From assembly GCA_002923215.1 (NCBI GenBank), contig BDTI01000175.1, positions 1 to 33,485 on the forward strand: DNA of 33,485 bases, read 5' to 3'. Source of the stretch: an archaeon BMS3Abin16. Lineage in GTDB: Archaea > Hydrothermarchaeota > Hydrothermarchaeia > Hydrothermarchaeales > SZUA-236. The translations under genes were made by a program, and so were the position numbers. Every line of letters starts with the position of its first letter. The first letter of the stretch is position 1. The notes beneath the pieces are model-generated. The model searched no databases. It saw nothing but the letters and a program-made list of their open reading frames with translations, and was not told the DNA's origin. Of this stretch, positions 19,119-33,485 are shown piece after piece.

Positions 19119-19124
19119 AAAAAG

Positions 19125-19496: not shown

Positions 19497-19509
19497 AATA
19501 ATTTCACCT

Positions 19510-20363: not shown

Positions 20364-21515
20364 TTAAACTGTCAGCCAATCCTCATAACGGACATTACGC
20401 GACTTCTTCTCACCCGTCATGCTGAGGATAATGTCTTTAACCGTTTTCACAGCCAGGGGATGAAGCATCATCATAATATCAGCGCCTGCCATGAGAACCG
20501 CTGTACCGGTCACGATCTCCCAAAGCGGACCCCGATGCTCACGGGGGCCCCATGCATCGTTATTGAGCCATGACTCGCGGGCGCCCCAGGCATTTGTGAC
20601 ACCGCATGAAATCGGCATCTGAAGCTCTTCATCACCCTTAAGCGCTCCGATCTTCATACGCTCAATAATCGAATAAGTATAGTCAAGGCCGTAGCCAAGT
20701 GCGCCGGTGGTCGGGTCCTGCACGATCTGATCCTGAGTAAGCCCTTCATCAAACAAAAGCCTGTTCAAGCTTTTCTGATCATTGATATTCATCGAAGTCC
20801 ATGAGAGGACGTTGTGCTTGTATTTGATCGCGGCTTGAGCAATCTTTTTGTAATCAAGATCAAGGTTTGCCGATGCAAGCAGGCATCTTTCACCCTCAGC
20901 CGCTTCAGCGCATTTCTCAAGGACCAAGGGGTCTTTTTCAGGTGTGCCTGAGCCTCCGATGACAAGGGGAACGTCAACAGCTTGAAGCACGTCTTCAACG
21001 GTCTTCGCAGCCTCCCTGGGACTTGAATCCTGATTATTCGGGTCAGTGGACGTGAGATGAATCGTAACAAGATCAGCACCCATCTTAACAGCTTTCTTCG
21101 CCCACTCCGCCGGGTCGTGCCACACATCTTCCACATGCTCGCGAATCGCGCGGGGAAGCGGCGGCGCAACGTCAAAGACATCAAAGGTTACAACAGGCCG
21201 GTTCACAATCCCGCCTTCAAACCAGTAGAGCGATTTCTGAGCGCCAAGCTTGACAACATGCTTGCGAGTCCCACCTTCAGACTTTGTAGCGCCAAGCTGA
21301 ACCTCGGCAACACTTCCTTTGTACTCACGAATCGGGACTTTGTATTCAAGGGGCGCAAGCTCTGGCGAAACACCGACACCTGCCACACTGGGCATGCCAG
21401 ATGCGATCAGCGCCTGCTGCACCTTTAGTATAAGCTCCTCAGTATCAATAGTCACATTCTCAAGCTCAATCTCATCAGCACCAGCAAAAGACGAAAGTAA
21501 CTCCTCAAGATTCAT
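20364..21515 (-). CDS. cdhD: Acetyl-CoA decarbonylase/synthase complex subunit delta (corrinoid Fe-S protein small subunit)
   Basis: 383 aa. It has long blocks shared with Methanosarcina CdhD: TIHLTSTDP, AAKTVEDVLQAVDVPLVIGGSG, GERCLLASANLDLDY, VLSWT, DPTTGALGYGLDY, TNAWGARESW, WGPREHRGPLWEIVTG and MMMLHP. Confidence 0.9.
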   Translation of the reverse strand: MNLEELLSSFAGADEIELENVTIDTEELILKVQQALIASGMPSVAGVGVSPELAPLEYKVPIREYKGSVAEVQLGATKSEGGTRKHVVKLGAQKSLYWFEGGIVNRPVVTFDVFDVAPPLPRAIREHVEDVWHDPAEWAKKAVKMGADLVTIHLTSTDPNNQDSSPREAAKTVEDVLQAVDVPLVIGGSGTPEKDPLVLEKCAEAAEGERCLLASANLDLDYKKIAQAAIKYKHNVLSWTSMNINDQKSLNRLLFDEGLTQDQIVQDPTTGALGYGLDYTYSIIERMKIGALKGDEELQMPISCGVTNAWGARESWLNNDAWGPREHRGPLWEIVTGTAVLMAGADIMMMLHPLAVKTVKDIILSMTGEKKSRNVRYEDWLTV

Positions 21516-21532
21516 AAGGGCTCATCTAAGCG

Positions 21533-22135
21533 TTATTCTATATAATTATTATTGTCACCGACGATTTCCTCTTCTTCCACATACCAGTCTCTGCTTGCCA
21601 TGTATCCTGCGATGAATCCGATGATAAGTCCTACGAGGTGTGCGAGAAAACCGGTTGCCGCTGCGAGGAAAAAGAAGACAAAGCCGTAGAGCATCGAGCT
21701 CCATATGCCGTTTGTGTAGACTCCGCGTTGAGCTGAGAGGTCTGCTCCAAGCAGGCCGTATATCGCGCCTGACGACCCGGCTGATATCGTGTCCAGAGGA
21801 TAGAGGAATGAGACAGATGTGGTTGCAAGTCCGAACAATAGGTAGAATAAAAGTGTTCGGCTTCGTCCGAATAGAGCTTCTGCCTTGGATCCGAAGAATG
21901 CGAGAAACAACATGTTATAGCCCAAGTGCGGGAAGTCGAAGTGTGTGAACATGTTCGTAACTATCTGATAGTACGCGCCTCCGAGAAACCGTTCAGTTAC
22001 AAAGCCGTATCGCTCCATGAGCCCTGTGTCGATTACCAGTATGTTACGACTCTGAATCGCGAGATAGATGTAGAATAGAATGTTAACTGTGAGCAAGGCA
22101 TATGTTACGATGGGCCGGGACTCGTCTCGCGACAT
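21533..22135 (-). CDS. Rhomboid-family intramembrane serine protease
   Basis: 200 aa with six hydrophobic helices. The TM2 motif is THFDFPHLGYNMLFL (HxxxxHxxxN). The catalytic GxSG is AGSSGAIYGL. The catalytic His block is AHLVGLIIG. Confidence 0.85.
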   Translation of the reverse strand: MSRDESRPIVTYALLTVNILFYIYLAIQSRNILVIDTGLMERYGFVTERFLGGAYYQIVTNMFTHFDFPHLGYNMLFLAFFGSKAEALFGRSRTLLFYLLFGLATTSVSFLYPLDTISAGSSGAIYGLLGADLSAQRGVYTNGIWSSMLYGFVFFFLAAATGFLAHLVGLIIGFIAGYMASRDWYVEEEEIVGDNNNYIE

Positions 22136-22140
22136 AAGTT

Positions 22141-22890
22141 TTACGACGCGCCTGTTAGCCTATCCTTTATCTTCAGTATTTCAACTAGCGCCGGTGAGTC
22201 CGGGGGAAGCTCTGGAAGCGGCCGCCCAGTGTAGTCAAACTCCAAAACATTTCGATCCTCAGGGATTGCGCCTAAAACTTCGAGTCCGAATGCTTCAAGC
22301 TCTTTTTTAATTCCCTCAGCCATACCGGGGTCTGCGCGGTTTATCACTACATAGAGTTTTTTGAAGTCAATGTCAAGGTCAGCGGCCAGGTTTTTTATCC
22401 GTTTTGCAGTCTCGATTCCTCGCTTCGATGTGTCGGTGACAACGATCATCGTGTCTACATCCTGCGTGGTCCTGCGTGAGAGGTGTTCAAGCCCGGCTTC
22501 GGTGTCGATTACCACGGTTTTGTAGCCTTTCGCCCACTTGTCAATAATCTCGCGCAGCATATGGTTTACAGCGCAGTAGCATCCGCTGCCCTCAGGTCGG
22601 CCCATGGCGAGTAGGTCGAAGTTATCAGTCTCCTCAATCGTGCCCAGTGTATGATATTCAAGGACGTCGTGGAGTGTTTTTCCCGGTGAGCGGTTTCGAG
22701 ATTCAAGTATTTCCTCGCGCACATCGCCAATCGTTTTTTCTACTTTGATCCCAAGTGCGTCGGGGAGGTTTGAATCCGGGTCTGCGTCGATTGCGAGGAG
22801 GTCCTGGTTTTCATCTGAAAATACTTTTACAAGCAGCGCTGAAAGCATGGTTTTGCCTACGCCGCCTTTACCTGAAACTGCGATTAACAT
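22141..22890 (-). CDS. cooC: CooC-type nickel-insertion ATPase (CO dehydrogenase/ACS maturation factor)
   Basis: From the ATG at 22890 (GGTGA upstream) the protein reads MLIAVSGKGGVGKT (deviant Walker A). The CooC-specific CxC metal site is GSGCYCAVN. The 27 upstream codons of the tracked ORF are not needed. Confidence 0.88.
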   Translation of the reverse strand: MLIAVSGKGGVGKTMLSALLVKVFSDENQDLLAIDADPDSNLPDALGIKVEKTIGDVREEILESRNRSPGKTLHDVLEYHTLGTIEETDNFDLLAMGRPEGSGCYCAVNHMLREIIDKWAKGYKTVVIDTEAGLEHLSRRTTQDVDTMIVVTDTSKRGIETAKRIKNLAADLDIDFKKLYVVINRADPGMAEGIKKELEAFGLEVLGAIPEDRNVLEFDYTGRPLPELPPDSPALVEILKIKDRLTGAS

Positions 22891-23015
22891 ATTCTTTTTC
22901 ACCTGCCCTTGGATATTTAATCTGAACGATGAAAAAGGTTTTGGTAATAAAGGTGCTTTTGGCAGCCACATTTTTTAATCATGACTTCATTCAACATTTA
23001 CTGAGTGATTTGAAG

Positions 23016-23747
23016 ATGAATGCAGCAGATGAAATAATTGAGATTTTCACCTCAAAAGGGATCTCCCAAAATGCGAGGGCAGTGATTGTTACCTGTGTGG
23101 ACCCGGATTATAATGCAGCGTCACTAGCTGACGATGTGTCTGATGAGAGTTTAAAAACTCTGCTCGCCGGGCTTAAGGTCTGGTACGACTCATCAAATGT
23201 TCAGCAGGCAGCACCAGGTTGGACACAGTTTGCCATGGCATACACTGGGCGGGAAAAAGGATTTGTTGAGATAGATAAAAAGATGGTTAAAGACAGTCTT
23301 CAAAATGGCGTTGTCCAGATAGCTGTGGACACCAGGGGGAAAACTGTTGTCCTCGCCATCCCCGGCGACTGTTATGCATTTAATCTGAAGGGAGCTGGAT
23401 TTGCCTTTGGACAGCCGCATGCAGCAGGCCCGGATGCTGCAACAATGCTTTTACAAACTATTTTAGACTGTGCTGTTGATTGGGAGAATGGAGGGGTGAA
23501 TCTTGTTTTAATGGCGCACCCGGACTGCAGACTCTACGCATTTAACGAAGGAGACATTAAAGATGGCAAGAGTCTTTCTACAAACACATTCTTGGAAAGC
23601 ACATATCATAAATGCGAATCACACCTTAAAAACAGAGGCTTTCTGGACCTTTCAAAAGCTGTTTCACACCGACCTAATCTCAGGGTTTTAAAGGCTGTTC
23701 CAAACTACAGTGCGAACCGAACACCCTGCATCTCAGATCAGGGGTAG
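23016..23747 (+). CDS. Hypothetical soluble protein (243 aa), family not recognised
   Basis: The ORF begins at the ATG at 23016 (MNAADEIIEIF...). The earlier start at 22929 would overlap the cooC 5' region. Composition is globular, with no motif I can name. Confidence 0.6.
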   Translation: MNAADEIIEIFTSKGISQNARAVIVTCVDPDYNAASLADDVSDESLKTLLAGLKVWYDSSNVQQAAPGWTQFAMAYTGREKGFVEIDKKMVKDSLQNGVVQIAVDTRGKTVVLAIPGDCYAFNLKGAGFAFGQPHAAGPDAATMLLQTILDCAVDWENGGVNLVLMAHPDCRLYAFNEGDIKDGKSLSTNTFLESTYHKCESHLKNRGFLDLSKAVSHRPNLRVLKAVPNYSANRTPCISDQG

Positions 23748-23797
23748 ACCCTGGCTTGTGGAAAACTTTAAATGCGAGACTAGGTTAAAACAGATTT

Positions 23798-24076
23798 ATG
23801 CCGGTTTCAACTGAACTTCTGGAGATACTTGCCTGCCCGATTGACAAAAAAGACGTGGTTTATCACAGGGACTATGACTTCATATTCTGCGAGAAATGCG
23901 ATGTCCGCTATCCAGCTGACCGAGCGGAGGGCAAGGATGTTTGCGCTAAGTGCGGCGGCGATGCTGAAAAGATCAAATGTGACGTTCTGATATGCAGCGA
24001 GTGTAACAGGTGGTATCCGATTATCGATGACATCCCCCATATGCTTCCAGACGAGCTGCGGGAAGATCTGGTCTGA
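23798..24076 (+). CDS. Trm112-like (DUF343/UPF0434) zinc-ribbon protein with an extra internal CxxC pair
   Basis: The N-terminus LLEILACPIDKK and the C-terminus CSECNRWYPIIDDIPHMLPDE are the Trm112 hallmarks. Between them lie CEKC...CAKC. Confidence 0.75.
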   Translation: MPVSTELLEILACPIDKKDVVYHRDYDFIFCEKCDVRYPADRAEGKDVCAKCGGDAEKIKCDVLICSECNRWYPIIDDIPHMLPDELREDLV

Positions 24077-24217
24077 CTATCTATCGATTAGTTTTTCAAC
24101 ACTTGCATATATTTCTCTGCTCTTTTCGTTCAGATATGCCCACTTTTCAGGGAGCGTCATTTTTTCATATCTTTTCCAATCGATAGGTGAAGATTCGGTG
24201 GGTGCTATCTCACGCAT
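24077..24217 (-). CDS. Possible small ORF (46 aa), hypothetical
   Basis: ATG at 24217-24215 to TAG at 24079-24077 gives MREIAPTESSPIDWKRYEKMTLPEKWAYLNEKSREIYASVEKLIDR. The sequence is charged and helical and lies below the ORF-track cutoff. An AT-rich region with TTTATAAAT lies upstream. There is no other support. Confidence 0.25.
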   Translation of the reverse strand: MREIAPTESSPIDWKRYEKMTLPEKWAYLNEKSREIYASVEKLIDR

Positions 24218-24330
24218 GTTGGAATATTCTAATTGCTAATTTATAAATCTTTTCTTCTTTTGGTGTTTTACTATCAGATTTGGTAGAAATATATTAAATA
24301 GCCTCTCCCCCTTTCAAAAATCAGATTAAC

Positions 24331-24603
24331 TTGAACGGAAATATCTTGAAGATACTCTCTCAAAAAGGCGTTTTAGAGATACTAGAAAACCTGGATAAAA
24401 AAAGGAGCCTCAAGTACAAAGAACTAGAGGAATTTGTAGGCAATCCCAGCACCACATCCAGAAGGCTAAACAGCCTTGAAAAAAAAGGCATAGTCGAAAG
24501 ACACGTATCATCTGAAAAATACCGGCCAGTCTACTACCAGCTAACAGACAAAGGAAGAAAGCTCCTATCCCACGTGCGAGAGTTGCGTGAAAACTACGGA
24601 TAA
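24331..24603 (+). CDS. Small winged-helix transcriptional regulator (HxlR/ArsR-like)
   Basis: 90 aa with a TTG start. GVLEILENL...LKYKELEEFVGNPSTTSRRLNSLEKKGIVERH...YQLTDKGRKL has the layout of a wHTH with a beta-wing. Confidence 0.7.
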   Translation: MNGNILKILSQKGVLEILENLDKKRSLKYKELEEFVGNPSTTSRRLNSLEKKGIVERHVSSEKYRPVYYQLTDKGRKLLSHVRELRENYG

Positions 24604-24635
24604 GATTTAAAAGGCCGTCCAGCCTAACTCTTTCA

Positions 24636-24712
24636 CCGCTGTGATGAATGATGGGCAAACTGATTTTCCACACTTGATGGGAAAAGAGATGAACCCTATG
24701 AGCTCTGAGCGG
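24636..24712 (+). ncRNA. C/D box sRNA candidate (2'-O-methylation guide)
   Basis: The C box GTGATGA is at 24641-24647. A 12-nt spacer leads to the D' box CTGA at 24660-24663. The C' box GAGATGA is at 24686-24692. A 12-nt spacer leads to the D box CTGA at 24705-24708. The flanking CCGC (24636-24639) and GCGG (24709-24712) can form the terminal stem with the 3-nt bulge a k-turn requires. The candidate lies in a convergent intergenic region. Confidence 0.5.
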
Positions 24713-24729
24713 ATTTAACCCTTCTACTT

Positions 24730-25197
24730 TTATTGGACTGCACCAAGTGATATCCGCTCGCAGATAAGCTCTCGCAGCGCGTCTGCAACCCTGCCGGGCA
24801 CAACCCCAAGCTCTGCGTCTGTAATCGAAAAAGCACACTTCAACACATTGATCCGAGACTCGTCAAGCACAATCTCAACCTCGCGCATCCCATGAGCATC
24901 AGAAAAACCAGGAGGAATCTCCGCTCCAAAGACTACAACATCCTGTGAACCATTAAGCCCGTACATCTCCAGCGCATGCTTGATCTGCCGCTGAGCCGAT
25001 GCCCATAAAAGAACCTCCACAAATATGTTAGCGCTGGTGTTACAGCCAGATTCAAAGGCGTACTCAGCCTTTTCAATGGCCAGCATGATATGCTCAAGCC
25101 CAAAGAGCAGAGAGGAGTCAACAACTTGAATACCAGGATATTTTTCAAGGATGTCTTTATTCACAGGAAGGTCACATCGATAAGCTTTTATCATCAT
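24730..25197 (-). CDS. cgi121: KEOPS complex subunit Cgi121
   Basis: From the ATG at 25197 the protein reads MMIKAYRCDL...FGLEHIMLAIEKAEYAFESG...ANIFVEVLLWASAQRQIKHALEMYG, matching the Cgi121 signature (EiLLyasgxRQIxxAi). Its ATG overlaps the MTAP TGA as ATGA (25197-25194). Confidence 0.7.
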   Translation of the reverse strand: MMIKAYRCDLPVNKDILEKYPGIQVVDSSLLFGLEHIMLAIEKAEYAFESGCNTSANIFVEVLLWASAQRQIKHALEMYGLNGSQDVVVFGAEIPPGFSDAHGMREVEIVLDESRINVLKCAFSITDAELGVVPGRVADALRELICERISLGAVQ

Positions 25198-25967
25198 ATC
25201 TTCGCGTCCAATTGGCTGCCACCACAATTGCAGCTCCTCTTCTGATCATTCAAATCTTTCACCGCTGAAATAATCGTATTCTTCACAGCCCCCTGGTTTT
25301 GCTCGATTGTCATCTTCAGCTCCTCTACCGTAAGCGGATTATCTGTAAGCCCGCACCCATAGTTAGCCACCTGACAGATAGACGCATAACAAAGCCCTGC
25401 TTCACGAGCAAGCGCTGTCTCAGGACATCCCACCATACCCACTACATCACCTCCAAGCATACGCAGCATCTTGATTTCAGCCGGTGTTTCAAACCTGGGC
25501 CCTTCAGTGCACACATAAATCCCGTGACCGTGAACATGCTGAAAATTCTGGGCCGCGCTTTTTTCAAGGACAAATCGAACTTTAGAACAATAAGGTTCTG
25601 ACATGTCAACATGTACAGTTTCACTGTCAAAAAATGTTTGAGCCCGATTCTTCGAAAGGTCAATGAAATCATTGGGGATGAGAACGCTTCCAGGCTCAAT
25701 CTTCAGGTCAAGTGAGCCCACGGAGTTAATGGAGATAACCGCTTTCGCCTGGGCTGCCTGGATTGCCGCGATATTTTTTCGGTACTCCACCCGGTGCGGC
25801 GGGAGACTGTGGTCTTTTCCATGACGGCTGATAAACATGACCTCAACCCCACTCATCTTTCCGACAACAGCCTGGCATCGGCCGAAGGGTGTTTCAATCA
25901 CAATCTCCTCCTGACCATCTAGAAAATCAGGGTCATAAAATCCGGTTCCCCCGATGATTGCGATCAT
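25194..25967 (-). CDS. mtnP: S-methyl-5'-thioadenosine phosphorylase (PNP/MTAP family)
   Basis: 257 aa. IAIIGGTGFYD, FISRHG..H..PPH.V.YRKNI, VCTEGPRFETPAE and VGMVGCPE blocks are typical of MTAP. Confidence 0.88.
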   Translation of the reverse strand: MIAIIGGTGFYDPDFLDGQEEIVIETPFGRCQAVVGKMSGVEVMFISRHGKDHSLPPHRVEYRKNIAAIQAAQAKAVISINSVGSLDLKIEPGSVLIPNDFIDLSKNRAQTFFDSETVHVDMSEPYCSKVRFVLEKSAAQNFQHVHGHGIYVCTEGPRFETPAEIKMLRMLGGDVVGMVGCPETALAREAGLCYASICQVANYGCGLTDNPLTVEELKMTIEQNQGAVKNTIISAVKDLNDQKRSCNCGGSQLDAKI

Positions 25968-27025
25968 TTTTTCAGCGCAGCCCGTCTAAGAAGGAATGCT
26001 GAAACCGATAGTCCCGCTCCAATTGTCGCCCGTCCAACAAGTTCGGCGATAGTAATCGTTTGAAGGCTGTAGCTGCTTACAGCGCCCACGATGAACCAGA
26101 GTGAAAGGAGGAATATTGCAAGTGTCAGATATTTGCCAAGCCCGCGGCCCTCAATTATAGCGTCAATGCTTCTGCCGGCAAGCGCGAGAAGCCCTGCCGC
26201 TGTAAGCGGGTCTTTAGCATAAGACATGAAAAATGGGAGGGCGTTTATAATGGAGCTGAAGACCTGGTCCTGCGTCGCCTGATACCCTCTGAGAATACCT
26301 ACAACAGCGACAAAAGCGGCGATGATATAGGTGAAAAAACTTGCTTTATCAGTAACCAAACTTTCACGAAGCGAAGTGACGTTACGTTCAAGCGACCCCT
26401 CAAGGTTAAATCCCTTGATAATGAGTAGCAAACCCAAAACACCGGCTATCACACGCCACACATTGTCCGGAAAGATCATGTAGAGCAGAAAAGCGATTCC
26501 CGGCACACCTAAAACAAGCCTGGCAATCTTTGGATCAGATGTTACATCTTTCAGAAAATCCAGGAGAAGATAATATGTGCTTTCCAGAGGTTCGCTCTGC
26601 TTTACAATCACCCGCTGAAGAGACACAACCTTTGCCCGCGACTCAACAATGGGCAGCACATGTTCATCCTCCGCACCGTCTGAAACAATCACAACCCCTT
26701 CTGCAGGGAAAATCTTGAGAACCTCTTCAAGCTGGTTTGAAACAATAATATCAGACTCCACGCCCACACGCTCGCTACCGGTAAGCGCGGCAACCTCCAC
26801 TTCTTTAAACCTGTTTTTCAATTCCTCAGAAATCTTAATGCCTGCAAACAAAACATTTGTGTCAGACTCAGTGGGATCAGCAAGCCCCAGGCGTGTTGCA
26901 GCATCAAGGATTTTCTCCCGACCCACAACCGGACCAATGACGCCGACCTTCGCCTCCAAATCCCCATCTCGGTCAATACAGATAACAAGTATCTTTTGAG
27001 AAGACGGTAGATCAGAGCCGATCAT
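25964..27025 (-). CDS. DUF373-family archaeal membrane protein
   Basis: 353 aa. The N-terminal soluble domain reads ILVICIDRDGDLEAKVGVIGPVVGREKILDAATRLGLADPTESDTNVLFAG. Six to seven TM helices follow. The family name is from memory. Its TGA overlaps the MTAP ATG as ATGA. Confidence 0.7.
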   Translation of the reverse strand: MIGSDLPSSQKILVICIDRDGDLEAKVGVIGPVVGREKILDAATRLGLADPTESDTNVLFAGIKISEELKNRFKEVEVAALTGSERVGVESDIIVSNQLEEVLKIFPAEGVVIVSDGAEDEHVLPIVESRAKVVSLQRVIVKQSEPLESTYYLLLDFLKDVTSDPKIARLVLGVPGIAFLLYMIFPDNVWRVIAGVLGLLLIIKGFNLEGSLERNVTSLRESLVTDKASFFTYIIAAFVAVVGILRGYQATQDQVFSSIINALPFFMSYAKDPLTAAGLLALAGRSIDAIIEGRGLGKYLTLAIFLLSLWFIVGAVSSYSLQTITIAELVGRATIGAGLSVSAFLLRRAALKK

Positions 27026-27042
27026 CTAACCCCCCCAGCCAT

Positions 27043-27855
27043 TCATAACTGACCAAACCGTTGAAGCAAAAAGAGATCATCAGTGGAAAGCTTCTCACCA
27101 TTCTTGAACCGCTCATAAACAAGTTTAGCCTCCTTCTTCAACTCTTCAGTCGACTTCTCCCGTCTCTTCTTCTCCTCACTCTCAAGGGTGCTGCTCACCT
27201 CTTTAACAAGGGCGTTTTTAGACTTTAAAACTTCTTTGACCTCGTCTAGCTTGGTTGTGACACCGTCTTTTTCCTTGTTCACATCATCGATCTTTACTTC
27301 AATCGCGCGGATTTCTTTTATGTTTTCAAGAAAATCTTCATGATGCTTCTGCGAATCCTGAGAATATCCAAGTATCTTTGAATGAATCTTTTTCGACTTC
27401 AGCTTTTTAGAGTCGATTTCGTTTGAGAGATGGATTAAATCCTTAAAATCCCGTAGATCAGCCTTTAGCTCTTCAATGCGCTTTACAAGCTCATCCTCTT
27501 TTTCAACCTTTAAAACACGGGTTTGAAGCGTCCACTCAAGCCGTTTAAGCTCCATCTCCATGCGCTTGAAATCCTTATTAGGCGCACCCTGACGAAGATC
27601 TTTATACGTTGCAAAAAGATCTTTAATCGCCGAGTTAATAGTTGTGCGCTCTTTTTTCAACTCCTGAATCTTTGAATTAAACTTATCCCTCTTGGCCTTG
27701 GCATCTTCAGCCTTTCTATTATGATTTTTAATAATCTCGATAAGATCCTTTTTCTTAGAGTTAAGTCCGCTAAGCTCCCTGCGCAGGATTGCGACCTCTC
27801 GCTTCAACTCATCCCGTTCCTTCAACTTTATCTTCAGCTCATCTGTCTTTTTCAC
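27043..27855 (-). CDS. Archaeal coiled-coil protein (COG1340-like), hypothetical
   Basis: 270 aa, almost entirely Lys/Glu/Leu-rich heptad sequence. It starts 2 nt after the glyA stop. Confidence 0.75.
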   Translation of the reverse strand: MKKTDELKIKLKERDELKREVAILRRELSGLNSKKKDLIEIIKNHNRKAEDAKAKRDKFNSKIQELKKERTTINSAIKDLFATYKDLRQGAPNKDFKRMEMELKRLEWTLQTRVLKVEKEDELVKRIEELKADLRDFKDLIHLSNEIDSKKLKSKKIHSKILGYSQDSQKHHEDFLENIKEIRAIEVKIDDVNKEKDGVTTKLDEVKEVLKSKNALVKEVSSTLESEEKKRREKSTEELKKEAKLVYERFKNGEKLSTDDLFLLQRFGQL

Positions 27856-27857
27856 GT

Positions 27858-29138
27858 TCAGTCACCAAATTCAATGTATTCATAGGCCTTCTGACCCTTA
27901 GTAAAAGAGAAATTTAAGGTAGTAAAATCGCGCCTGAAATCAATCACTTCCTGCTTAACGCTCTTGTCATCTATGACCACATTCTTTATAAATTCTGCTA
28001 TCACTTCCATCTCACCTTCGCACATGCCGAGCCGTGTAAGCTCCTGCGTGCCGATTCTGATTCCTGACGGATCAACAGACTTGTCCAGCCTGTCCCATGA
28101 AAGCAGGTTCTTGTTAATGATGATATTGTTTTCTTCAAGGGCCTTTGCAACCCTGGTGCCCTTACCATGGTGTGTCACGTCTACAAGCACCTGATGAGAT
28201 TCTGTAAAACCCTTGTGTTCGCAGAGCACCTCAAAGCCTCTCTCATATAAAGCTTCTGCCAATGCTTTAGCATTCGCAATGGTCTGCGCCGCATAATCCT
28301 CGCCGAACTCAAGCATCTCGGCAAGGGCTACTGCAAGACCCGCGAGGTGATGGAGGTGATGGTTTGAAACAACACCTGGAAACACCGCGTTATCAATCTT
28401 TTCTTTGAGTCTATCTGAATCTGTAAATAAAATTCCGCCCTGAGGCCCTGGAAAAGTCTTGTGCCGGCTGCTAGCCATAATATCCGCGCCTTCTTTGAGC
28501 GGCTTTTGAAACTGTCCGCCAGCGATTAATCCGAGCACGTGGGCTGCGTCATAGCCGATACTTGCGCCCACTTCATCGGCAGCCGCGCGAAGCTCACTCA
28601 CTGGATGAGGGAATAGGAACACGCTTCCGCCGAAATATAGAAACTTAGGTTTTTCGACAAGTATGGCTTTCTGTGTTGCATCCACGTCAATATTCATCTC
28701 ACGAGGGTCGAAGATAAAGTTCTTCACCTTAAGATCCATCACACCTGCAGCCGATATCCGGGAGTGACTGATATGCCCGCCATCAGGCACATGCAGGCTC
28801 ATCATAGTATCACCGCTTCGGCCGAGCGCCGTGTAGGCAGCGAGATTTGCCACAACACCTGAAGTAGCCTGCACGTTCACGTGTTTTGCGTTGAAAAGCT
28901 GCCTGCCAAGCTTCTTTGTGAGCTTTTCAATCTCATCAATATAAGTGCACCCCTGATAATACCGCTCGCCCGGCTGCCCCTCAGCATACCGGTGGGAAAG
29001 ATCGGTTGCCATCATCTCCCTCACAGCGTGGCTTGTAACATTTTCAGAGGCGATCAGGGGCAGACACTCATCCATCCACTGGTGATGGGCTTTAACGATC
29101 GTGCGAATATTTTCTGCTACCTCAGCGTTCTTGCTCAT
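27858..29138 (-). CDS. glyA: Serine hydroxymethyltransferase
   Basis: 426 aa. [18 protein letters not shown] and the PLP-lysine region [13 protein letters not shown] are present. Confidence 0.95.
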
Positions 29139-29144
29139 ACTGTA

Positions 29145-29759
29145 TCAACTCGATTTAATTTCATTTTTTATCTGCTCTGCCGCGCCACGGGGATCTGGGC
29201 TGTTGCAGATTGCGCGCCCGATGATTTCGAAATCCGCGCCTGCAGATATGGCAGATCCAACCTCTGCGCCCTGGGCTTTCACGCCAGGAGATATGACTAT
29301 CAGGTCTCCTATGATACTCCTAAGGGTTTTTATGGTTTGCGGTCGCGTGGCAGGTGCGACAATTCCCTCGGCAAACCCTGCGGCGTGAGACGCGATTTCA
29401 CGGTTATGCCCTGAGATATAGTCGAGGGCGCCGGGATGGCTCATGTCAGAGACCACGAATAGGCTGGCTTCTTTGCTGCATGCCTCGACAACATCACGCC
29501 CCATTACTCCCTGGACGATTACGAAGTCTGCGCCTGCCTCTGTTGCGAGCCTGCATATCTCTGCGCTTACATGGGGCACGTCGGCAACCTTGAAATCCGC
29601 GATAATCGGCAGGTTGAATTGCTTGAGTTCAGTTATCACATCCAGTCCCGCTGACAGCACCAGCGGATAGCCAACTTTGATTGCGTCAATATATTCAGCG
29701 GTTTGCCCTACTACTTCAACCGCCCGCTTTGTTCCATTCACGTCAAGCGCCAGAATCAC
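29145..29759 (-). CDS. pyrF: Orotidine 5'-phosphate decarboxylase
   Basis: 204 aa with a GTG start. ILALDV, IKVGYPL, IADFKVADVPH (DxKxxD) and VISPGVKAQG align closely with the archaeal PyrF I know. The reading frame is open a further 16 codons upstream, with no canonical start there. Confidence 0.9.
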   Translation of the reverse strand: MILALDVNGTKRAVEVVGQTAEYIDAIKVGYPLVLSAGLDVITELKQFNLPIIADFKVADVPHVSAEICRLATEAGADFVIVQGVMGRDVVEACSKEASLFVVSDMSHPGALDYISGHNREIASHAAGFAEGIVAPATRPQTIKTLRSIIGDLIVISPGVKAQGAEVGSAISAGADFEIIGRAICNSPDPRGAAEQIKNEIKSS

Positions 29760-29918
29760 GCCGGCCCTTCTCAGCTTTAACAGGTCTTTTCCATCTATAG
29801 TAACAGCTCCCTAAACCGCAATAAACCCTGGTATATAATAAGTTTTTCGCAGGGCCCGGTGTAGAGAATTGTGTGAGAGATTATTTATAATGACGCGGAT
29901 TTATACATAAGAAGGAGC

Positions 29919-30251
29919 ATGAAAATCTTTAATTTACATGGGCTGGCTGAAGAGTCTGAAGGCGAATATGTGCTGGGTCTTAAAGACCTCAGTACCCATG
30001 CGGTGTACATTGTATATGGTTTTTTAGAGCCAGGCGAAACTGGTAGAAAGGTGCTTCCGGGAAAGGGGCATGAAGAGATACTCTGCGCGGTGAAAGGCGA
30101 GGTCAGGGTTAAAACACCGGGTGAAACTTTCACGCTCAAATCCGGTGAAGCCGTGCATGTGAAAGAAGAAGATGAATGGACACTGGAAAACACAGGCGAT
30201 GAAACCGTTTTTTACATACTAGCAGGCGGACACCCGCCGAAAAAACACTAA
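29919..30251 (+). CDS. Cupin-domain protein
   Basis: 110 aa. GKGHEEILCAVKGEVRV....FTLKSGEAVHV.....TLENTGDETVFYI is a cupin_2 two-motif pattern. A GGAG Shine-Dalgarno sequence sits just upstream of the ATG. Confidence 0.75.
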   Translation: MKIFNLHGLAEESEGEYVLGLKDLSTHAVYIVYGFLEPGETGRKVLPGKGHEEILCAVKGEVRVKTPGETFTLKSGEAVHVKEEDEWTLENTGDETVFYILAGGHPPKKH

Positions 30252-30259
30252 TAATATCA

Positions 30260-30325
30260 TTATTCTTTCACCCGCTCTTTCAGTTTCGTAATCCTGTCGA
30301 GCACAAAGCTGGCATTATGGTAGAT
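30260..30325 (-). pseudogene. Relic of a UvrB C-terminal (UVR-domain) coding end; no start codon, about 22 codons
   Basis: The minus strand reads ...YHNASFVLDRITKLKERVKE-TAA (stop at 30262-30260). The live uvrB end reads ...FERAIALRDRVVKLKERIGE-TAA (stop at 31775-31773). Aligned by hand from the stop codons, 36 of 54 nt are identical, including a perfect 12-mer (CTCTTTCAGTTT), in the same frame. Confidence 0.5.
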
Positions 30326-30341
30326 ATTAAATAGTCTAAAG

Positions 30342-30349
30342 TTTAATAT
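30342..30349 (+). promoter_or_regulatory. TATA-like element (TTTAATAT) for the three-gene cassette
   Basis: Centred about 26 nt upstream of the ATG at 30371, consistent with a leaderless first gene. Confidence 0.3.
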
Positions 30350-30370
30350 TGGCGAAAAAGAGTGAAACTT

Positions 30371-30673
30371 ATGGCAACGATGGATTGTTCATTGAAATGT
30401 TCTCTAACAGAGGGGAAATCTGCCATTAAAAGAGCACTTACTGAACTCAGCTGGCAGGTAGAGGAAGAATCTGCAGATTGGATAAAAGCATCAACACAAG
30501 GCACGATATGGTCATGTGGGGAAAATATAGAGATTTACATTTCTTCTCAGGTTAGTCAAATCAATGTTTCAATCAACTCCGTCCCAAAATGGCAGTTCCT
30601 TGATTGGGGAAAGAGCGAAGAAAATGTCAAACTATTATATGATACAATATTAGAGATGGCGTTGGATGGGTGA
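30371..30673 (+). CDS. Small soluble protein (100 aa), family not recognised; first gene of the cassette
   Basis: ATG at 30371 (the ORF track uses a GTG at 30362). Translation is MATMDCSLKCSLTEGKSAIKRALTELSWQVEEESADWIKASTQGTIWSCGENIEIYISSQVSQINVSINSVPKWQFLDWGKSEENVKLLYDTILEMALDG. It alternates helix and strand patterns and has no TM segment. Confidence 0.65.
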   Translation: MATMDCSLKCSLTEGKSAIKRALTELSWQVEEESADWIKASTQGTIWSCGENIEIYISSQVSQINVSINSVPKWQFLDWGKSEENVKLLYDTILEMALDG

Positions 30674-30679
30674 AATTGC

Positions 30680-31030
30680 ATGAAGTTATATGTCGCTTGT
30701 AAGTATTGCAGGAAAAAAATCTACTTCAATAGTCCTGCGAAAATAAGAGCAGAATTGCCCTATCTGTTCAATCTACAGTGCCAACAACCTAACTGCCACC
30801 CCCATGTAGGGCATCAGATTTATGGTCGAGGCGAGATCTATAATAGATCAGAGGTAAAGGCTGAATTGGGGATAAGTGGTTTAGTGGGAGGTGCTCTTGT
30901 TACTGGCATTCTTGGAGGACTGGTTGCAGGGCCAATTGGATTACTACTTGGTGGTGCTCTAGGTGGGGGTGTTGGTTCGGCTTCTGACCAGACAGACAGA
31001 GAAGCGGTAGAGAGGTTCAATGCATCATGA
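30680..31030 (+). CDS. Zinc-ribbon protein with a C-terminal glycine-zipper membrane segment (hypothetical)
   Basis: 116 aa. CKYC...CQQPNC is a CxxC-x23-Cx4C ribbon. GISGLVGGALVTGILGGLVAGPIGLLLGGALGGGVG is a long GxxxG-repeat glycine zipper. GGTGA lies 6 nt upstream of the ATG. Confidence 0.7.
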   Translation: MKLYVACKYCRKKIYFNSPAKIRAELPYLFNLQCQQPNCHPHVGHQIYGRGEIYNRSEVKAELGISGLVGGALVTGILGGLVAGPIGLLLGGALGGGVGSASDQTDREAVERFNAS

Positions 31031-31719
31031 TAGAATGGGTGGGATACCTCCGAACTTCTATTAATTTATACTACATAATCCCAGGTGTTTTTGCGTTAGT
31101 AGTTTTTTGGGTACAATTTAGCGAGAGAAACACCAAGATCATGCCCCTTTTTCTTCAGATAAGCGGAATTTTTTCGTTTATCTTATCAATAGAATATTCT
31201 GCTATCATACTATTACTCGATCGGCCTTTGCCGGCACCATTAAGTACATTCGACAAAGGTCTTGCTGGAGTAGCGTTGATTATTATTTTATTAATCGGAT
31301 TCCACTATTCCACTGAAGGTACAAAACTTGGCAACTGGCTATCGAATATATTAGACAACCACATCTCATGGCGTGTCCCTGTTCCCGTCCCAGTTTCTCT
31401 TTTAGATGAACAATTGGAAAAATTAAGGGAGGTAAGAGAGGCCATTAATACAGGTGAGGAGAGCCAGTTGGAGCCAGCATGTCAGACTGTTCTTGAAAGT
31501 TGTGCAGGCGTCTCGATTTTATTGCAAGAAGTCACACATAGGCGTGGCGAAGAGATAAAACTATCAATTGAAAAGTGTAAACATGAGTTCCAAGAACTAA
31601 GCTCATTCCCTTCCCTCCAGCAAAGACGAAAATCATCTAACTCACTTTCAGACTTAATAGGTGTATTGAATGCAACAACGAGAATACTCGATACACCAGA
31701 TATGACAAAACCGAATTAA
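31027..31719 (+). CDS. Membrane protein with three N-terminal TM helices and a C-terminal helical soluble domain of about 120 aa (hypothetical)
   Basis: 230 aa. The helices are YYIIPGVFALVVFWVQF, MPLFLQISGIFSFILSIEYSAIILLL and GLAGVALIIILLIGFHY. A VPVPVPV linker and a charged helical region follow. Its ATG overlaps the TGA of the previous gene as ATGA at 31027-31030. Confidence 0.7.
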   Translation: MIEWVGYLRTSINLYYIIPGVFALVVFWVQFSERNTKIMPLFLQISGIFSFILSIEYSAIILLLDRPLPAPLSTFDKGLAGVALIIILLIGFHYSTEGTKLGNWLSNILDNHISWRVPVPVPVSLLDEQLEKLREVREAINTGEESQLEPACQTVLESCAGVSILLQEVTHRRGEEIKLSIEKCKHEFQELSSFPSLQQRRKSSNSLSDLIGVLNATTRILDTPDMTKPN

Positions 31720-31772
31720 TCAGACTCAAATTATACTCTTTAATTGATTTATCAGCTCATAGAAAGTAAAAA

Positions 31773-33485
31773 TTATTCTCCAATCCTCTCTTTCAGTTTT
31801 ACTACCCTGTCGCGCAGTGCAATCGCTCTTTCGAAGTCCAGTTTGTCCGCTGCCTCGCGCATCTCAGCTTCAAGCACTGTTATCATCTCTGGAACCGCCG
31901 TCTTCGGAATGTGTTTCGTGTCTGTTAAGTCAACCTCTTTTTCACGCACCGGCTTGACAATCGTTTCAGGCACTATACCGTGTTTTTTATTGTAGTTTAG
32001 CTGAAGCTTGCGCCTGCGCTCAGTCTCAGAAAGCGCGGCGCAGATCGAATCCGTAATCCGGTCAGCATATAGCACCACCCTGCTGTTCACGTTCCGAGCG
32101 GCACGACCGATGATCTGAATCAAGCTCCGGGCGTCCCGTAGAAATCCCTCTTTATCAGCGTCGAGTATGCCGATAAAACCCACCTCCGGTATATCAAGTC
32201 CCTCCCTGAGCAGGTTTATCCCTACGAGGACATCGAATCTGCCCAGCCTTAGCTGTCTGATGATCTCGGTGCGCTCTAGAGTATCGACTTCTGAGTGAAG
32301 ATACCGCGCCTTAATCTGTTGGTCTGCCAGATACTCGGTTAGCTCCTCGGCAAGCCTCTTGGTAAGCGTTGTCACAAGCACACGATCCCCGCGGCTGATA
32401 GTGGATCGGATCTCAGCCAAGAGATCCGCTATCTGCCCCTCGATGGGCCGCACTTCGACGACTGGGTCAATGAGCCCTGTGGGCCTGATTATCTGCTCAA
32501 CAATCTGCGACGACATATCCCGCTCGTAGCGCGCTGGCGTTGCCGAGACAAAAATAGCCTGTTTCATATACTTTTCAAACTCCTCAAAGCGCAGAGGCCT
32601 GTTGTCAAAAGCAGAGGGCAGCCTGAAGCCGTAGTCCACGAGCGCTTTTTTGCGCGAGTAGTCGCCGTTGTACATGCCGTGAACCTGGGGAATCGTCTGA
32701 TGGCTTTCATCGATAAACATGAGAAAGTCCTCCGGGAAATAGTCGAGCAGACAATAAGGCGGCTCACCCTGTTTTCGCCCGTCAAAATGACGGCTGTAGT
32801 TTTCAATACCCTTACAGTAACCGGTTTCCTCGATCATCTCAATGTCATATAGCGTGCGCTGCCTCAGCCGATGCGCCTCAAGTAGGTCCAGCTCGGGCAG
32901 CCGCTTCTCAAGCTCGGCTCTGATGGAATCAATCGCCTTTTGTTTCTCATCGTCAGCGATTACAAAGTGCCGCGCTGGATAGACAAAATAATATTTGAAC
33001 TCCTCAACCAGCTCGCCCGTGACCTTATCAATCTCCCGGATCCGCTCCACAGTGTCGCCGAACAACTCAACCCTGATTATGTTATTATAATATCCCGGCA
33101 CGATGTCGATTGTCCCGCCTTTCACACGGAACCGGCCAGGCGCAAGGTCGAGGTCATTTCGCTCATACTGCACGTCCACAAGCCGTCTGAGCAGGTCGTT
33201 TCGCTTGACACGCTCGCCGACTTGTAGCTCGAATCCGAGGCGCTGGAAGTTCTCAGGATTACCCAGGCCGTAGATGCATGAGACCGAGGCTACAACAATC
33301 GTGTCGCGCCTGCTCATGAGCGACGCTGTAGCGCTTAGCCTGAGCATCTCGATCTTCGGGTTCACAGCCGCGTCTTTTTCAATATATTGGTCTTTCTGCG
33401 GCAGATAGGATTCAGGCTGATAATAATCATAATAGGAGACGAAATACTCCACCCGGTTGTCTGGGAAAAACTCAGTGAACTCGTT
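31773..33485 (-). CDS. uvrB: Excinuclease ABC subunit B (5' end lies beyond the window)
   Basis: The frame is open to the window edge (NEFTEFFPDNRVEYFVSYYDYYQPE...). The DESH box appears as FIDESHQT. Helicase motifs TLTKRLAEELT, GINLLREGLDIPEV and QIIGRAARN are present. The C-terminal UVR domain reads DKLDFERAIALRDRVVKLKERIGE. Confidence 0.95.
   Translation of the reverse strand, partial: NEFTEFFPDNRVEYFVSYYDYYQPESYLPQKDQYIEKDAAVNPKIEMLRLSATASLMSRRDTIVVASVSCIYGLGNPENFQRLGFELQVGERVKRNDLLRRLVDVQYERNDLDLAPGRFRVKGGTIDIVPGYYNNIIRVELFGDTVERIREIDKVTGELVEEFKYYFVYPARHFVIADDEKQKAIDSIRAELEKRLPELDLLEAHRLRQRTLYDIEMIEETGYCKGIENYSRHFDGRKQGEPPYCLLDYFPEDFLMFIDESHQTIPQVHGMYNGDYSRKKALVDYGFRLPSAFDNRPLRFEEFEKYMKQAIFVSATPARYERDMSSQIVEQIIRPTGLIDPVVEVRPIEGQIADLLAEIRSTISRGDRVLVTTLTKRLAEELTEYLADQQIKARYLHSEVDTLERTEIIRQLRLGRFDVLVGINLLREGLDIPEVGFIGILDADKEGFLRDARSLIQIIGRAARNVNSRVVLYADRITDSICAALSETERRRKLQLNYNKKHGIVPETIVKPVREKEVDLTDTKHIPKTAVPEMITVLEAEMREAADKLDFERAIALRDRVVKLKERIGE

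Follow-up and report, generated by a model that had tools for sequence, protein, structure and literature searches.

The window, a 33,485-nt stretch of archaeal DNA, carries a 1520-bp cassette that was horizontally acquired. Its presence varies between strains, and the uvrB 3′ end, where it lies, is a variable hotspot. The cassette encodes three proteins (g1, g2 and g3) and represents one form of a module that is spread across prokaryotes and had not been described before. Its most likely identity is a mobile module for conflict or defence. This reading follows from the scatter of the module over bacteria and archaea, its absence from sister strains, and the occupation of the same site elsewhere by the candidate defence system PDC-S39. 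The features of the locus are as follows.

30250-31769, no strand assigned: whole cassette, the 1520-bp segment of the window that is missing from close sister strains (blastn and GC)
30259-30303, no strand assigned: left direct repeat, the insertion scar, a degenerate relic of the uvrB 3′ end (repeat search and alignment)
30315-30370, plus strand: putative archaeal promoter region that travels with the cassette (conserved in contig L004; two AT-rich, TATA-like boxes)
30371-30673, plus strand: g1, a soluble protein of ~100 aa (ATG start as in public gene calls; an alternative GTG start lies at 30362)
30680-31030, plus strand: g2, the 116-aa signature protein (N-terminal domain, glycine-zipper hairpin, C-terminal helix)
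31027-31719, plus strand: g3, a 230-aa polytopic membrane protein (ORF and hydropathy)
31772-31816, minus strand: right direct repeat, the functional uvrB 3′ end (repeat partner; the uvrB ORF is 31773-33452 on the minus strand)

Comparison with sister strains shows the cassette to be a genuine indel. A close sister contig (L057) aligns with the left flank of the window up to position 30249 at 99.97% identity and with the right flank from 31770 at 95.7% (blastn). The preliminary description of this DNA had raised, as a case against itself, that the trio might be a fixed neighbour of uvrB. It is not. In two close strains (L057 and L062) the cassette is missing and the cupin gene abuts uvrB, an empty site. 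A third (L061) has different cargo, the same cupin|uvrB junction being filled by the PADLOC candidate PDC-S39 (E 5e-241). Here PDC-S39 is one 608-aa protein with DUF7380 and EMARD_N domains, encoded in the orientation opposite to the trio. Three states of the junction were seen (empty, trio and PDC-S39), and the empty and trio states come from one metagenome assembly. MNT/HepT, NERD-TPR and Mrr-like genes are found just past uvrB in the sister strains.

An insertion scar had also been proposed, and it is present as a 45-nt copy of the uvrB 3′ end. The two members of this direct repeat pair (30259-30303 and 31772-31816) are 76% identical and spaced 1513 nt apart. The left-hand relic can be aligned with the uvrB 3′ ends of all three sister contigs (L057, L061 and L062). 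There are no tRNA genes or Rfam families within the window. Thus, the insertion was not at a tRNA gene. No integrase is encoded inside the cassette.

The cassette had been described as AT-rich relative to its neighbours. The direction is correct. Its GC content of 39.9% is the minimum among all 1520-bp windows of the 33.5 kb (mean 47.4%, sd 2.8%). The figures first given were approximate, and uvrB has a GC content of 52% rather than 55%. GC3 of the cassette genes is 0.355-0.366, compared with 0.497±0.055 for 28 other genes. Within the window, both GC and GC3 are at or close to the minimum. UbiA, a core membrane-protein gene, has a GC3 of 0.539, so the low values in the cassette are not a membrane-protein effect.

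The gene layout is as the preliminary description gave it. The three ORFs are co-directional, packed in the order g1, g2, g3 and translationally coupled, with a 6-nt gap holding GGTGA ahead of g2 and an ATGA overlap between g2 and g3. The TATA-like box TTTAATATT is located at 30341-30349, about 26 nt ahead of the first ATG. A second AT box, TATTAAATA, occurs at 30324-30332. Both boxes are kept in the related contig L004, whose similarity to the window begins at 30315 (56 nt 5′ of the g1 ATG). The interval 30315-30370 is thus a putative archaeal promoter. The window and L004 have the cassette alone in common, and their flanks cannot be aligned. Values of dN/dS are ~0.13 for g2, 0.28 for the N-terminal part of g3 and 0.47 for g1, ratios that mark the three as genuine genes kept by purifying selection.

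The three proteins had been reported to fall in no recognisable family. This stands for the curated libraries, none of which (Pfam, NCBIfam, PADLOC, PHROGs) places g1, g2 or g3, and has to be qualified for g2, which has weak matches to generic glycine-zipper models (see below). PADLOC-DB v2.0.0 returned zero families at E ≤ 1 for the three proteins, and no module protein matched a toxin family. Nothing was significant in PHROGs, where the best E-values were 0.0093 (g2, phrog_4431) and 0.081 (g1), with none for g3. The library searches gave no confident match to a housekeeping family either, an identity that the preliminary description had set against its own reading. In the literature, we did not find a description of the module, of glycine-zipper defence or toxin-antitoxin (TA) effectors, or of PDC-S39/DUF4209/EMARD.

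The g2 family is large. It comprises 819 clusters at E ≤ 1e-3 and 382 at E ≤ 1e-10, counted at 50% identity (at least 382). Nearly all are 100-112 aa long and match over the full length, and their members are annotated merely as "hypothetical protein". We searched a genome collection with a strict, hand-written degenerate DNA pattern. There were 45 matches and g2 was confirmed in 43, so by this pattern the module is rare (43 among 185,579 species genomes). The taxa include Bacteroidota, Gammaproteobacteria, Desulfobacterota-type bacteria, Chlamydiaceae, WOR-3, Parvarchaeota, Nitrosopumilaceae and Methanobacteriota. This spread across domains points to horizontal transfer of the module. A coupled polytopic membrane protein follows g2 in 36/41 genome loci, from many bacterial phyla and Parvarchaeota, and the gaps between the two genes are mainly -4 to +8 nt. 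The only recurrent neighbours around the module are g1, g2 and g3 themselves. Archaeal-type g2 was not found in GTDB species genomes; JGI metagenomes yielded one additional contig with it (L010).

The conserved core of the module is therefore g2 with its downstream membrane protein, and the three-gene form is one variant. The preliminary description had also considered that the genes might never occur together outside this genome. They do so, as closely coupled genes, on four more contigs of archaeal type and in dozens of genomes, bacterial and archaeal. With no housekeeping identity, no fixed place beside uvrB and no confinement to one genome, the reading as an accessory, foreign and compact module outside the known families is well supported. 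What did not survive from the initial interpretation is its archaeal character, as bacteria supply most members, and the standing of the three-gene form as the general one.

The protein common to all versions, g2, has the following parts.

30680-30865, plus strand: N-terminal domain, aa 1-62 (AF2 pLDDT 60-82; predicted order beta-beta-alpha-beta-beta-beta)
30869-30979, plus strand: glycine-zipper segment, aa about 64-100, a putative membrane hairpin (hydropathy, conserved Gly)
30980-31027, plus strand: C-terminal helix ending in F-N-x-S (AF2 helix 100-115, pLDDT 73-84)

The four cysteines and the Gly-rich hydrophobic stretch (residues about 64-100) that had been noted in g2 are both there. The cysteines form two knuckles, C7-x2-C10 (30698-30709) and C34-x4-C39 (30779-30796), which would lie on separate hairpins. 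They come or go together: among 187 members both knuckles are present in 35, none in 146, and a partial set in 6. Zinc-ribbon Pfam models match weakly in a few of the Cys-bearing members. The pattern suggests a structural Zn site. A Zn-ribbon form restricted to archaea would fit the 45 genome loci. We do not claim it, as the four cysteines also occur in 25/149 family representatives that have no assigned origin and otherwise look bacterial-type.

Positions conserved in ≥80% of the 187 members are M1, L3, A20, R23, L26, V59, A61, E62, F113, N114 and S116. At the C-terminus, F113 and N114 are found in 99% and S116 in 85%. The glycines G80, G84, G87, G91, G95 and G99 are present in 96-100% at i+3/i+4 spacing, and hydropathy peaks at 2.08 over residues 72-90, as in a glycine-zipper motif. 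The zipper consists of two short hydrophobic helices flanking a conserved G-P turn and is a putative membrane hairpin. The AF2 model of g2 rests on 8 sequences, and its confidence over the zipper is poor (pLDDT <50). No signal peptide or lipobox is apparent on reading the sequence.

The weak library matches of g2 come from this segment. Against C19orf12-like, the g2 of the window scores 22.8 bits, below the Pfam cut-off of 30, and over residues 66-105 only. Among 108 g2 relatives, 67 match C19orf12, 41 YMGG and 36 Omp at E ≤ 0.01, always via the Gly-rich segment and with best E-values of 1e-6 to 1e-8. The zipper part also gives weak matches to Rick_17kDa, OsmB-type YMGG, DUF456 and DUF1269. 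Like g2, the C19orf12-like (PF20721), Gly-zipper_YMGG (PF13441), Gly-zipper_Omp (PF13488), Rick_17kDa_Anti (PF05433) and DUF456 families have repeated G-x3-G around a central turn. In contrast, the N-terminal domain and F-N-x-S helix of g2 are in no library, and a fixed downstream membrane partner is a feature of the module and not of these families. No relative of the N-terminal domain was found in the PDB, either by fold (Foldseek) or with a 41-sequence profile. A beta-grasp or ubiquitin-like fold was considered on the basis of the secondary-structure order and an MKLYVK..G.KI.L.V pattern. It was rejected, as neither search returned ubiquitin-like proteins.

The first gene, g1, is an optional member of the module. 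Homologs lie immediately 5′ of g2 in 26 locus copies (15/41 distinct genome loci), in the clade of the window, Parvarchaeota and many Bacteroidota. They share the motifs S-x-G-E and Q-L-x-D-W-G-K/T-N. No hydrophobic segment was detected in g1 by hydropathy. Its predicted fold is beta-alpha-beta4-alpha (AF2 pLDDT 80.9, in a model built on 2 sequences). Foldseek matches are to the BamC N-domain, KA1 domains and the AMPK-alpha C-terminal domain (E ~1e-4). Superposition on 2laf, 5wi2, 4yom and 2v8q gives TM scores of 0.63-0.71, above 0.5, a fold resemblance only. The helix-grip-like fold is similar in all of them, whereas sequence identity is 6-15%. A g1 profile had no match among PDB sequences. 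The fold is small and common, and thus homology to KA1, BamC or AMPK-alpha is not established. The g1 of the window matches nothing in Pfam at E ≤ 1. The g1 of Lacibacter scores 14.1 bits against DUF1499, below the cut-off of 22.6 (E 0.066).

Three transmembrane segments had been predicted in g3, and hydropathy agrees, with a hydrophilic C-terminal half.

31057-31113, plus strand: g3 hydrophobic segment, aa 11-29 (hydropathy)
31138-31194, plus strand: g3 hydrophobic segment, aa 38-56 (hydropathy)
31240-31296, plus strand: g3 hydrophobic segment, aa 72-90 (hydropathy)
31324-31716, plus strand: g3 hydrophilic C-terminal half, about 130 aa (hydropathy)

Homologs of this g3 are limited to the window-type clade (36% identity in L005; also L010, and partial in L004 and L006). 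It had no match in Pfam, PDB or PADLOC. Homology to the common g3 of ~165 aa was tried and rejected: an iterated HMM fell short and hhalign gave a probability of 1%. The functional equivalence of the two proteins is thus an assumption.

Known defence genes repeatedly adjoin the module in unrelated genomes. A census covered 149 neighbors of 41 loci and gave strong PADLOC matches, counted without a background control. Wadjet JetC/JetD (L039), Lamassu LmuB (L047) and a type I restriction enzyme (L022) adjoin the module, as do HigB/HTH, HEPN_Apea and NACHT genes in L007 and MNT/HepT in L008. Other loci have, within ±3.5 kb, a CBASS cyclase with a phospholipase, HerA (twice), HEC-06, PDC-S08 and a type II restriction enzyme. 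Many other neighbors are housekeeping genes (GcvP, adenylosuccinate synthetase, thiolase, etc.). Integrases are 4/149 neighbors, in 4 loci. A steady linkage to recombinases was considered and rejected, as only 2/10 neighboring ORFs of ~290 aa are tyrosine recombinases. Among the 2.9 M viral contigs of IMG/VR, the DNA pattern had 0 matches (45 in the genome collection) and the archaeal profile 0. Phage and plasmid records gave no tblastn match to the bacterial member P0004, the sole query.

Two kinds of characterized system are among the closest. T6SS pairs such as Tse4/Tsi4 and Ssp6/Sip6 combine a pore-forming glycine-zipper effector with an immunity protein of the inner membrane. As in the module, a glycine-zipper gene stands beside a polytopic membrane gene, and an ion-selective pore and depolarization are proposed. 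Unlike them, g2 has a cytoplasmic-type N-terminal domain and no delivery signal, and there is no sequence homology. T6SS genes and delivery domains such as PAAR, VgrG and MIX were not recurrent near the module in the Pfam census of neighbors, which places it outside these pairs. To our knowledge archaea lack T6SS, and the module occurs in archaea. RexAB is a two-component, membrane-depolarizing abortive-infection system. It resembles the module as a compact accessory unit with a soluble and a polytopic membrane component and a proposed collapse of membrane potential. It differs in that the module has no RexA/RexB homology and no PADLOC match, and adds a third, glycine-zipper component. PDC-S39 shares only the cupin|uvrB junction with the trio. 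It is uncharacterized, known only via its association with defence islands, and unrelated to the trio, with no sequence in common.

From the occupancy of a hotspot, the PADLOC candidate at the same site, the defence genes nearby in unrelated genomes and the patchy phylogeny, we infer a conflict role. Membrane action is suggested by the match of generic glycine-zipper models to the g2 segment and by the partner gene, which always encodes a membrane protein. Our best reading is that the module would act on membranes in conflict. In its specific form, it would be self-contained and resemble abortive-infection or toxin-immunity systems. The N-terminal domain and C-terminal helix of g2 would remain cytoplasmic while the zipper hairpin enters the membrane. 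Once freed from control, g2 would oligomerize via the zipper, and the membrane would be permeabilized or depolarized. The co-translated g3 would restrain or gate g2, and g1 could sense or regulate as a soluble protein, perhaps at the membrane surface. We offer this pore, restraint and sensor scheme tentatively, as a plausible account that falls a little short of probable. The zipper hairpin might serve as a membrane anchor and nothing more. The absence of PADLOC, PHROG and toxin-family matches, the many housekeeping neighbors, the low AF2 confidence over the zipper and the rarity of the module also count against the scheme. A further-reaching version, which we regard as doubtful, is a new, self-contained membrane-pore immune system of archaea and bacteria. 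In it the N-terminal domain (Zn-stabilized in some lineages) would sense an infection cue and free the zipper hairpin, which would assemble with others into a depolarizing pore, the co-translated membrane partner would gate that pore, and the KA1-like g1 would tune the trigger.

The same parts could serve a selfish TA or addiction cassette, with g2 as a membrane toxin that g3 and/or g1 neutralize, kept by post-segregational killing or hitch-hiking and giving no protection from viruses. In line with this, the three genes make a compact, self-contained unit with coupled translation and no further conserved partner, carriage is patchy and differs between strains, and classical TA pairs are found nearby (HigB/HTH in L007; MNT/HepT in L008 and the sister strains). 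However, plasmids hold no copy (bacterial member as query), there is no antitoxin-type DNA-binding domain, and g2 is retained while g3 is exchanged for a non-homologous protein. A dN/dS as low as 0.13 in g2 would be unusual in a decaying selfish element. We consider such a cassette unlikely as the full explanation; it overlaps with the membrane-acting conflict module, since defence is also a function of many TA modules. A bacteriocin- or halocin-like peptide (g2) aimed at competitors, with g3 as its immunity protein, is very unlikely. In class II bacteriocins, immunity is usually conferred by a downstream membrane protein, an arrangement seen here, and 6/108 g2 members match Bacteriocin_IIc. 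These matches are weak and confined to the low-complexity Gly-rich segment. Moreover, neither a double-glycine leader nor a signal peptide is seen in g2, which begins at M1 with a conserved, structured domain of 60 aa, and neither an ABC exporter nor a C39 peptidase recurs nearby, the recurrent genes being g1-g3 only.

The module might instead have no part in conflict. It could be an accessory membrane module that, for instance, helps cells tolerate membrane stress, maintains osmotic or envelope balance, or assists a small transporter or channel, comparable to glycine-zipper stress proteins and gained and lost as niche-adaptive cargo. The weak zipper matches to YMGG/OsmB-type, DUF456 and DUF1269 membrane families are in line with such a role. 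So are the absence of toxin, nuclease and NTPase domains in library searches, the good share of housekeeping neighbors, and the g1 fold, as KA1/BamC-like folds of known proteins bind membranes or partner proteins. On the other hand, g2 has neither the signal peptide nor the lipobox typical of stress lipoproteins, and the insertion site is a hotspot whose content differs from strain to strain, with a defence candidate as the alternative occupant. The repeated placement of the module beside genes of Wadjet, Lamassu, restriction and TA systems in unrelated genomes and the cross-domain spread, which indicates horizontal transfer, also speak against it, and we think such a role improbable.

If the membrane-acting conflict function is correct, the module would be a compact defence or toxin system functioning in archaea as well as bacteria, and the widespread glycine-zipper motif would gain a defined role in intracellular conflict. 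We know of very few membrane-acting defence effectors that have been characterized in archaea. No Pfam, NCBIfam, PADLOC or PHROGs model covers the g2 family, whose clusters number at least 382 at 50% identity. Whatever the function, the uvrB 3′ end is a clean natural case of a strain-level hotspot in an uncultured archaeal population, and its three states make it useful for finding more archaeal accessory systems. The relatives of the uncultured hydrothermal archaeon that carries the cassette are recorded under the names "archaeon BMS3Bbin16" and "Euryarchaeota archaeon".

The preliminary description had placed three ORFs at 30362-31719, and an ORF check bears this placement out. They lie between a cupin gene and the 3′ end of uvrB, occupy a 1520-bp segment (30250-31769), here called the cassette, and encode a small soluble protein (g1), a glycine-zipper protein (g2) and a polytopic membrane protein (g3).

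29919-30251, + strand, cupin gene, left neighbour of the cassette
30362 (GTG) or 30371 (ATG) to 30673, + strand, g1 ORF
30680-31030, + strand, g2 ORF, 116 aa
31027-31719, + strand, g3 ORF, 230 aa
31773-33452, - strand, uvrB, 3′ end facing the cassette

Public gene calls use the ATG at 30371, giving a g1 of 100 aa. The signals described earlier are all present in the sequence: a 6-nt spacer between g1 and g2 with GGTGA ahead of it, an ATGA stop-start overlap between g2 and g3, and a TATA-like element (TTTAATATT, 30341-30349) about 26 nt 5′ of the first ATG. The claim of an AT-rich composition also holds in direction. At 39.9% GC the cassette is lower than every other window of 1520 bp across the 33.5 kb (mean 47.4%, sd 2.8%), and GC3 is 0.355-0.366 for the three genes vs. 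0.497±0.055 in 28 other genes. UbiA, a core membrane-protein gene of the window, has a GC3 of 0.539, and the bias is therefore not a by-product of coding for membrane proteins. By hydropathy, g1 has no hydrophobic segment, g2 has one broad segment (aa 61-90), and g3 has three (aa 11-29, 38-56 and 72-90), in keeping with the three TM helices first proposed. Pairwise dN/dS against orthologues on independent contigs (g2 0.13, g3 N-terminal part 0.28, g1 0.47) shows that all three are real genes under selection.

The preliminary description had set its reading against conservation of the trio beside uvrB in all relatives; we found empty sites in two sister strains (contigs L057 and L062) and other cargo in a third (L061). 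Protein clusters link the window to uncultured archaea that go by 'archaeon BMS3Bbin16' and 'Euryarchaeota archaeon' in the sources. L057, a 66.9-kb contig that also encodes the window's exact SHMT protein, has the uvrB end 2 nt from the cupin stop. In a BLASTN comparison the window and L057 are 99.97% identical over 17858-30249, differ by the 1520-bp cassette, and align again from 31770 at 95.7% identity. This fall in identity (31770-33485, uvrB) indicates that a recombination breakpoint lies at the cassette. A further contig, L001, has the cassette in a form identical to the window's and comes from the same assembly as L057 (ERZ1742237), and so one population appears to have both the cassette and the empty allele. 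The final 144 nt of this short contig (L001:2136-2279) do not align to the window's uvrB and may be a strain variant or a chimeric assembly end. The proposed insertion scar was located at the left edge of the cassette, where 30259-30303 directly repeats the uvrB 3′ end (31772-31816) at 76% identity. A repeat of this kind is the signature of an insertion into a gene 3′ end in which that end was either supplied by the insert or regenerated. Similarity to L004, a contig with a related unit, starts at 30315 and takes in two AT-rich boxes, which suggests that the cassette carries its own putative promoter. The flanks of L004 do not align to those of the window; the cassette is thus the sole part common to both.

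In L061, the equivalent of window 30250-31769 (L061:10395-12221, - strand) holds a 608-aa DUF7380 + EMARD_N protein exactly at the cupin|uvrB junction. It matches the PADLOC phage-defence candidate PDC-S39 over its full length (E 5e-241). The gene lies directly downstream of uvrB, in the opposite orientation to the trio.

None of the three proteins had a significant match in Pfam, NCBIfam, PADLOC or PHROGs, and the earlier statement that they belong to no recognisable family holds for these four curated libraries. The closest approach was a sub-threshold C19orf12-like match to the Gly-rich segment of g2 (22.8 bits vs. a cut-off of 30). A word-indexed protein search returned eight relatives of g2, two of g1, and for g3 only itself. 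The contigs of these relatives show that the unit recurs: as 97 + 116 aa and a truncated third gene in L004, as 98 + 111 + 223 aa in L005, as a partial copy in L006, and as 110 + 229 aa, lacking g1, in L010. Bacterial g2 relatives are 30-38% identical over their full length, lack the Cys residues and have the same three-gene layout, e.g., 100 + 104 + 165 aa in Lacibacter cauensis and 98 + 100 + 199 aa in a Prevotellaceae MAG. L010 is a low-GC contig, with a 58-aa ORF containing two CxxC pairs upstream of the unit (2691-2867, + strand) and a 288-aa ORF without a PADLOC match downstream (4096-4962, + strand).

With a g2 profile built from 8 sequences, an exhaustive HMMER search returned 819 clusters (50% identity) at E<=1e-3, of which 382 reach E<=1e-10; almost all are 100-112 aa long and match from end to end. 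Their source annotation is 'hypothetical protein' or, on the basis of the motif, 'glycine zipper domain-containing protein'. We also screened a 185,579-species genome collection with a hand-written degenerate DNA pattern for bacterial-type g2, which first recovered the known loci. It gave 45 matches, 43 of them true g2 proteins (41 distinct sequences). Hosts include many Bacteroidota, Gammaproteobacteria (Pseudoalteromonas, Psychromonas, Moritella, Oceanospirillum, Litoribrevibacter, Motiliproteus), Desulfuromonas, Pseudodesulfovibrio, Duganella, Sideroxydans, a Chlamydiaceae MAG and WOR-3, and, among archaea, Parvarchaeota, one Methanobacteriota MAG and one Nitrosopumilaceae MAG. Neither the DNA pattern (2.9 M IMG/VR contigs) nor the archaeal profile matched anything in IMG/VR, and a TBLASTN of one bacterial g2 against phage and plasmid records had no match. 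No description of the module was found in the searchable literature. The g1, g2 and g3 families are undescribed and have no model in the four libraries. Small accessory modules of defence hotspots are in themselves a familiar kind of thing, with many candidates.

Iterated HMM searches, run on every ORF of the collected loci, gave the layout across genomes. A membrane protein of ~165 aa with 3-4 hydrophobic segments lies directly downstream of g2 in 36/41 distinct genome loci (gap mostly -4 to +8 nt). On the other side, 15 of these 41 loci, and the window-type contigs as well, have a g1 homologue immediately upstream of g2 (gap mostly -4 or -1 nt). All-against-all clustering of neighbours gave no other recurrent family. 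The core of the module is thus g2 + g3, with g1 optional and the three-gene form one layout. Carriers of g1 are the window clade, Parvarchaeota and many Bacteroidota; the proteobacterial loci and several flavobacterial ones lack it. The 230-aa g3 of the window clade is common to L005 and L010. The g3 HMM does not reach it, and hhalign gives a probability of 1% against the common ~165-aa g3; it may be either a non-homologous replacement or divergent beyond detection. The Methanobacteriota (L023:7340-7657, - strand) and Nitrosopumilaceae (L024:5998-6306, - strand) g2 genes, both of the four-Cys form, adjoin no recognisable g1 nor a g3 of either type. In one g2-family representative (P0146, 266 aa), a C-terminal region of ~160 aa with a GIY-YIG-like motif takes the place of a separate g3, joined to the g2 homologue either by a true fusion or by a gene-calling error.

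Across 187 g2 members, M1, L3, A20, R23, L26, V59, A61, E62, six zipper Gly, F113, N114 and S116 are kept in at least 80%. Both Cys knuckles are found in 35 members, none in 146 and a partial set in 6, the all-or-none pattern expected of a putative structural zinc site kept or lost whole. All archaeal genome matches have the four Cys and none of the bacterial genome matches do. We do not claim the four-Cys form to be archaeal only, because 25/149 unlabelled representatives also carry it. In a Pfam scan of 108 members, the Gly-rich segment alone was recognised, weakly, by generic Gly-zipper models, and a few members of the Cys form touch zinc-ribbon models. The AF2 model of g2 (8 sequences, mean pLDDT 63) predicts an N-domain of beta-beta-alpha-beta-beta-beta order (pLDDT 60-82) and a confident C-terminal helix (73-84), with the zipper unconfident (<50). 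The fold has no match among solved and viral structures, and an N-domain profile of 41 sequences has no relative in the PDB. For g1, AF2 predicts a beta-alpha-beta4-alpha fold (pLDDT 80.9) similar to the BamC N-domain, KA1 domains and the AMPK-alpha C-terminal domain (TM 0.6-0.7, E ~1e-4) at 6-15% sequence identity. The g1 profile had no match to PDB sequences, and one bacterial g1 reaches DUF1499 at E 0.066 only. The modelled likeness is one of fold and does not amount to family membership. No PDB match was found for g3.

Defence genes often lie beside the module. Neighbours include HigB/HTH, HEPN_Apea and a NACHT protein in Lacibacter; MNT/HepT, DUF4160/DUF2442, AAA_14 and NYN in Prevotellaceae; Wadjet JetC + JetD immediately upstream in Sideroxydans (L039); Lamassu LmuB (L047); a type I restriction enzyme in Parvarchaeota (L022); and IetS-like proteases (L017 and L029). 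A census of 149 neighbours (±3.5 kb) added a CBASS cyclase and phospholipase effector, two HerA, HEC-06, the PADLOC candidate PDC-S08, a type II restriction enzyme and four integrases; housekeeping genes were also many. The counts cover the module's own neighbourhoods, and the enrichment is suggestive. Just beyond uvrB, the sister strains encode MNT/HepT, an HTH + DUF2178 pair, a NERD-TPR protein (partial match to the PADLOC candidate PDC-M16A) and an Mrr-like protein (Mrr_cat), and the region resembles an islet of defence and TA genes beside the hotspot. A SACS-like giant protein is also encoded there, outside the window (L057:1684-6859 and L061:14253-20333).

The module is compact, selected, horizontally mobile and strain-variable. 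A Gly-zipper protein and a membrane protein together form its core, and its site alternatively holds a defence candidate. The earlier reading of a foreign, compact accessory module stands in this respect, and for its other part, a conflict function, we infer that the module acts on its own cell's membrane, as an abortive-infection or toxin-immunity type of system. In such a mechanism g2 would form pores or depolarise the membrane, g3 would serve as the gate or the immunity protein for g2, and g1 as a soluble regulator. Among documented systems, the closest analogues of this proposed mechanism are Gly-zipper pore-forming T6SS effectors with their membrane immunity proteins, and RexAB-type depolarising systems, although the module has no homology to either and no T6SS link. 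The rivals to a conflict module of this type are a purely selfish TA cassette and an accessory module serving membrane stress outside any conflict; a bacteriocin/immunity pair is poorly supported. Points of interest are that the module spans archaea and bacteria, that its hotspot shows three clean states within a natural population of archaea, and that the membrane mechanism proposed lends itself to testing.

Outside the cassette lies ordinary core chromosome, which encodes AlaRS, EPSP synthase, chorismate synthase, UbiA, SHMT and PyrF; no tRNA genes were found in it and no Rfam families matched. Among the other genes of the window, only a 173-aa ORF without a Pfam match (3428-3949, + strand; GC3 0.345) has third positions as AT-rich as those of the cassette, and it may for this reason be foreign too. 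Within the second AT-rich patch of the window lies a 267-aa ORF, also without a Pfam match (16947-17753, - strand; 38.9% GC), adjoining the UbiA and DUF502 membrane-protein genes.
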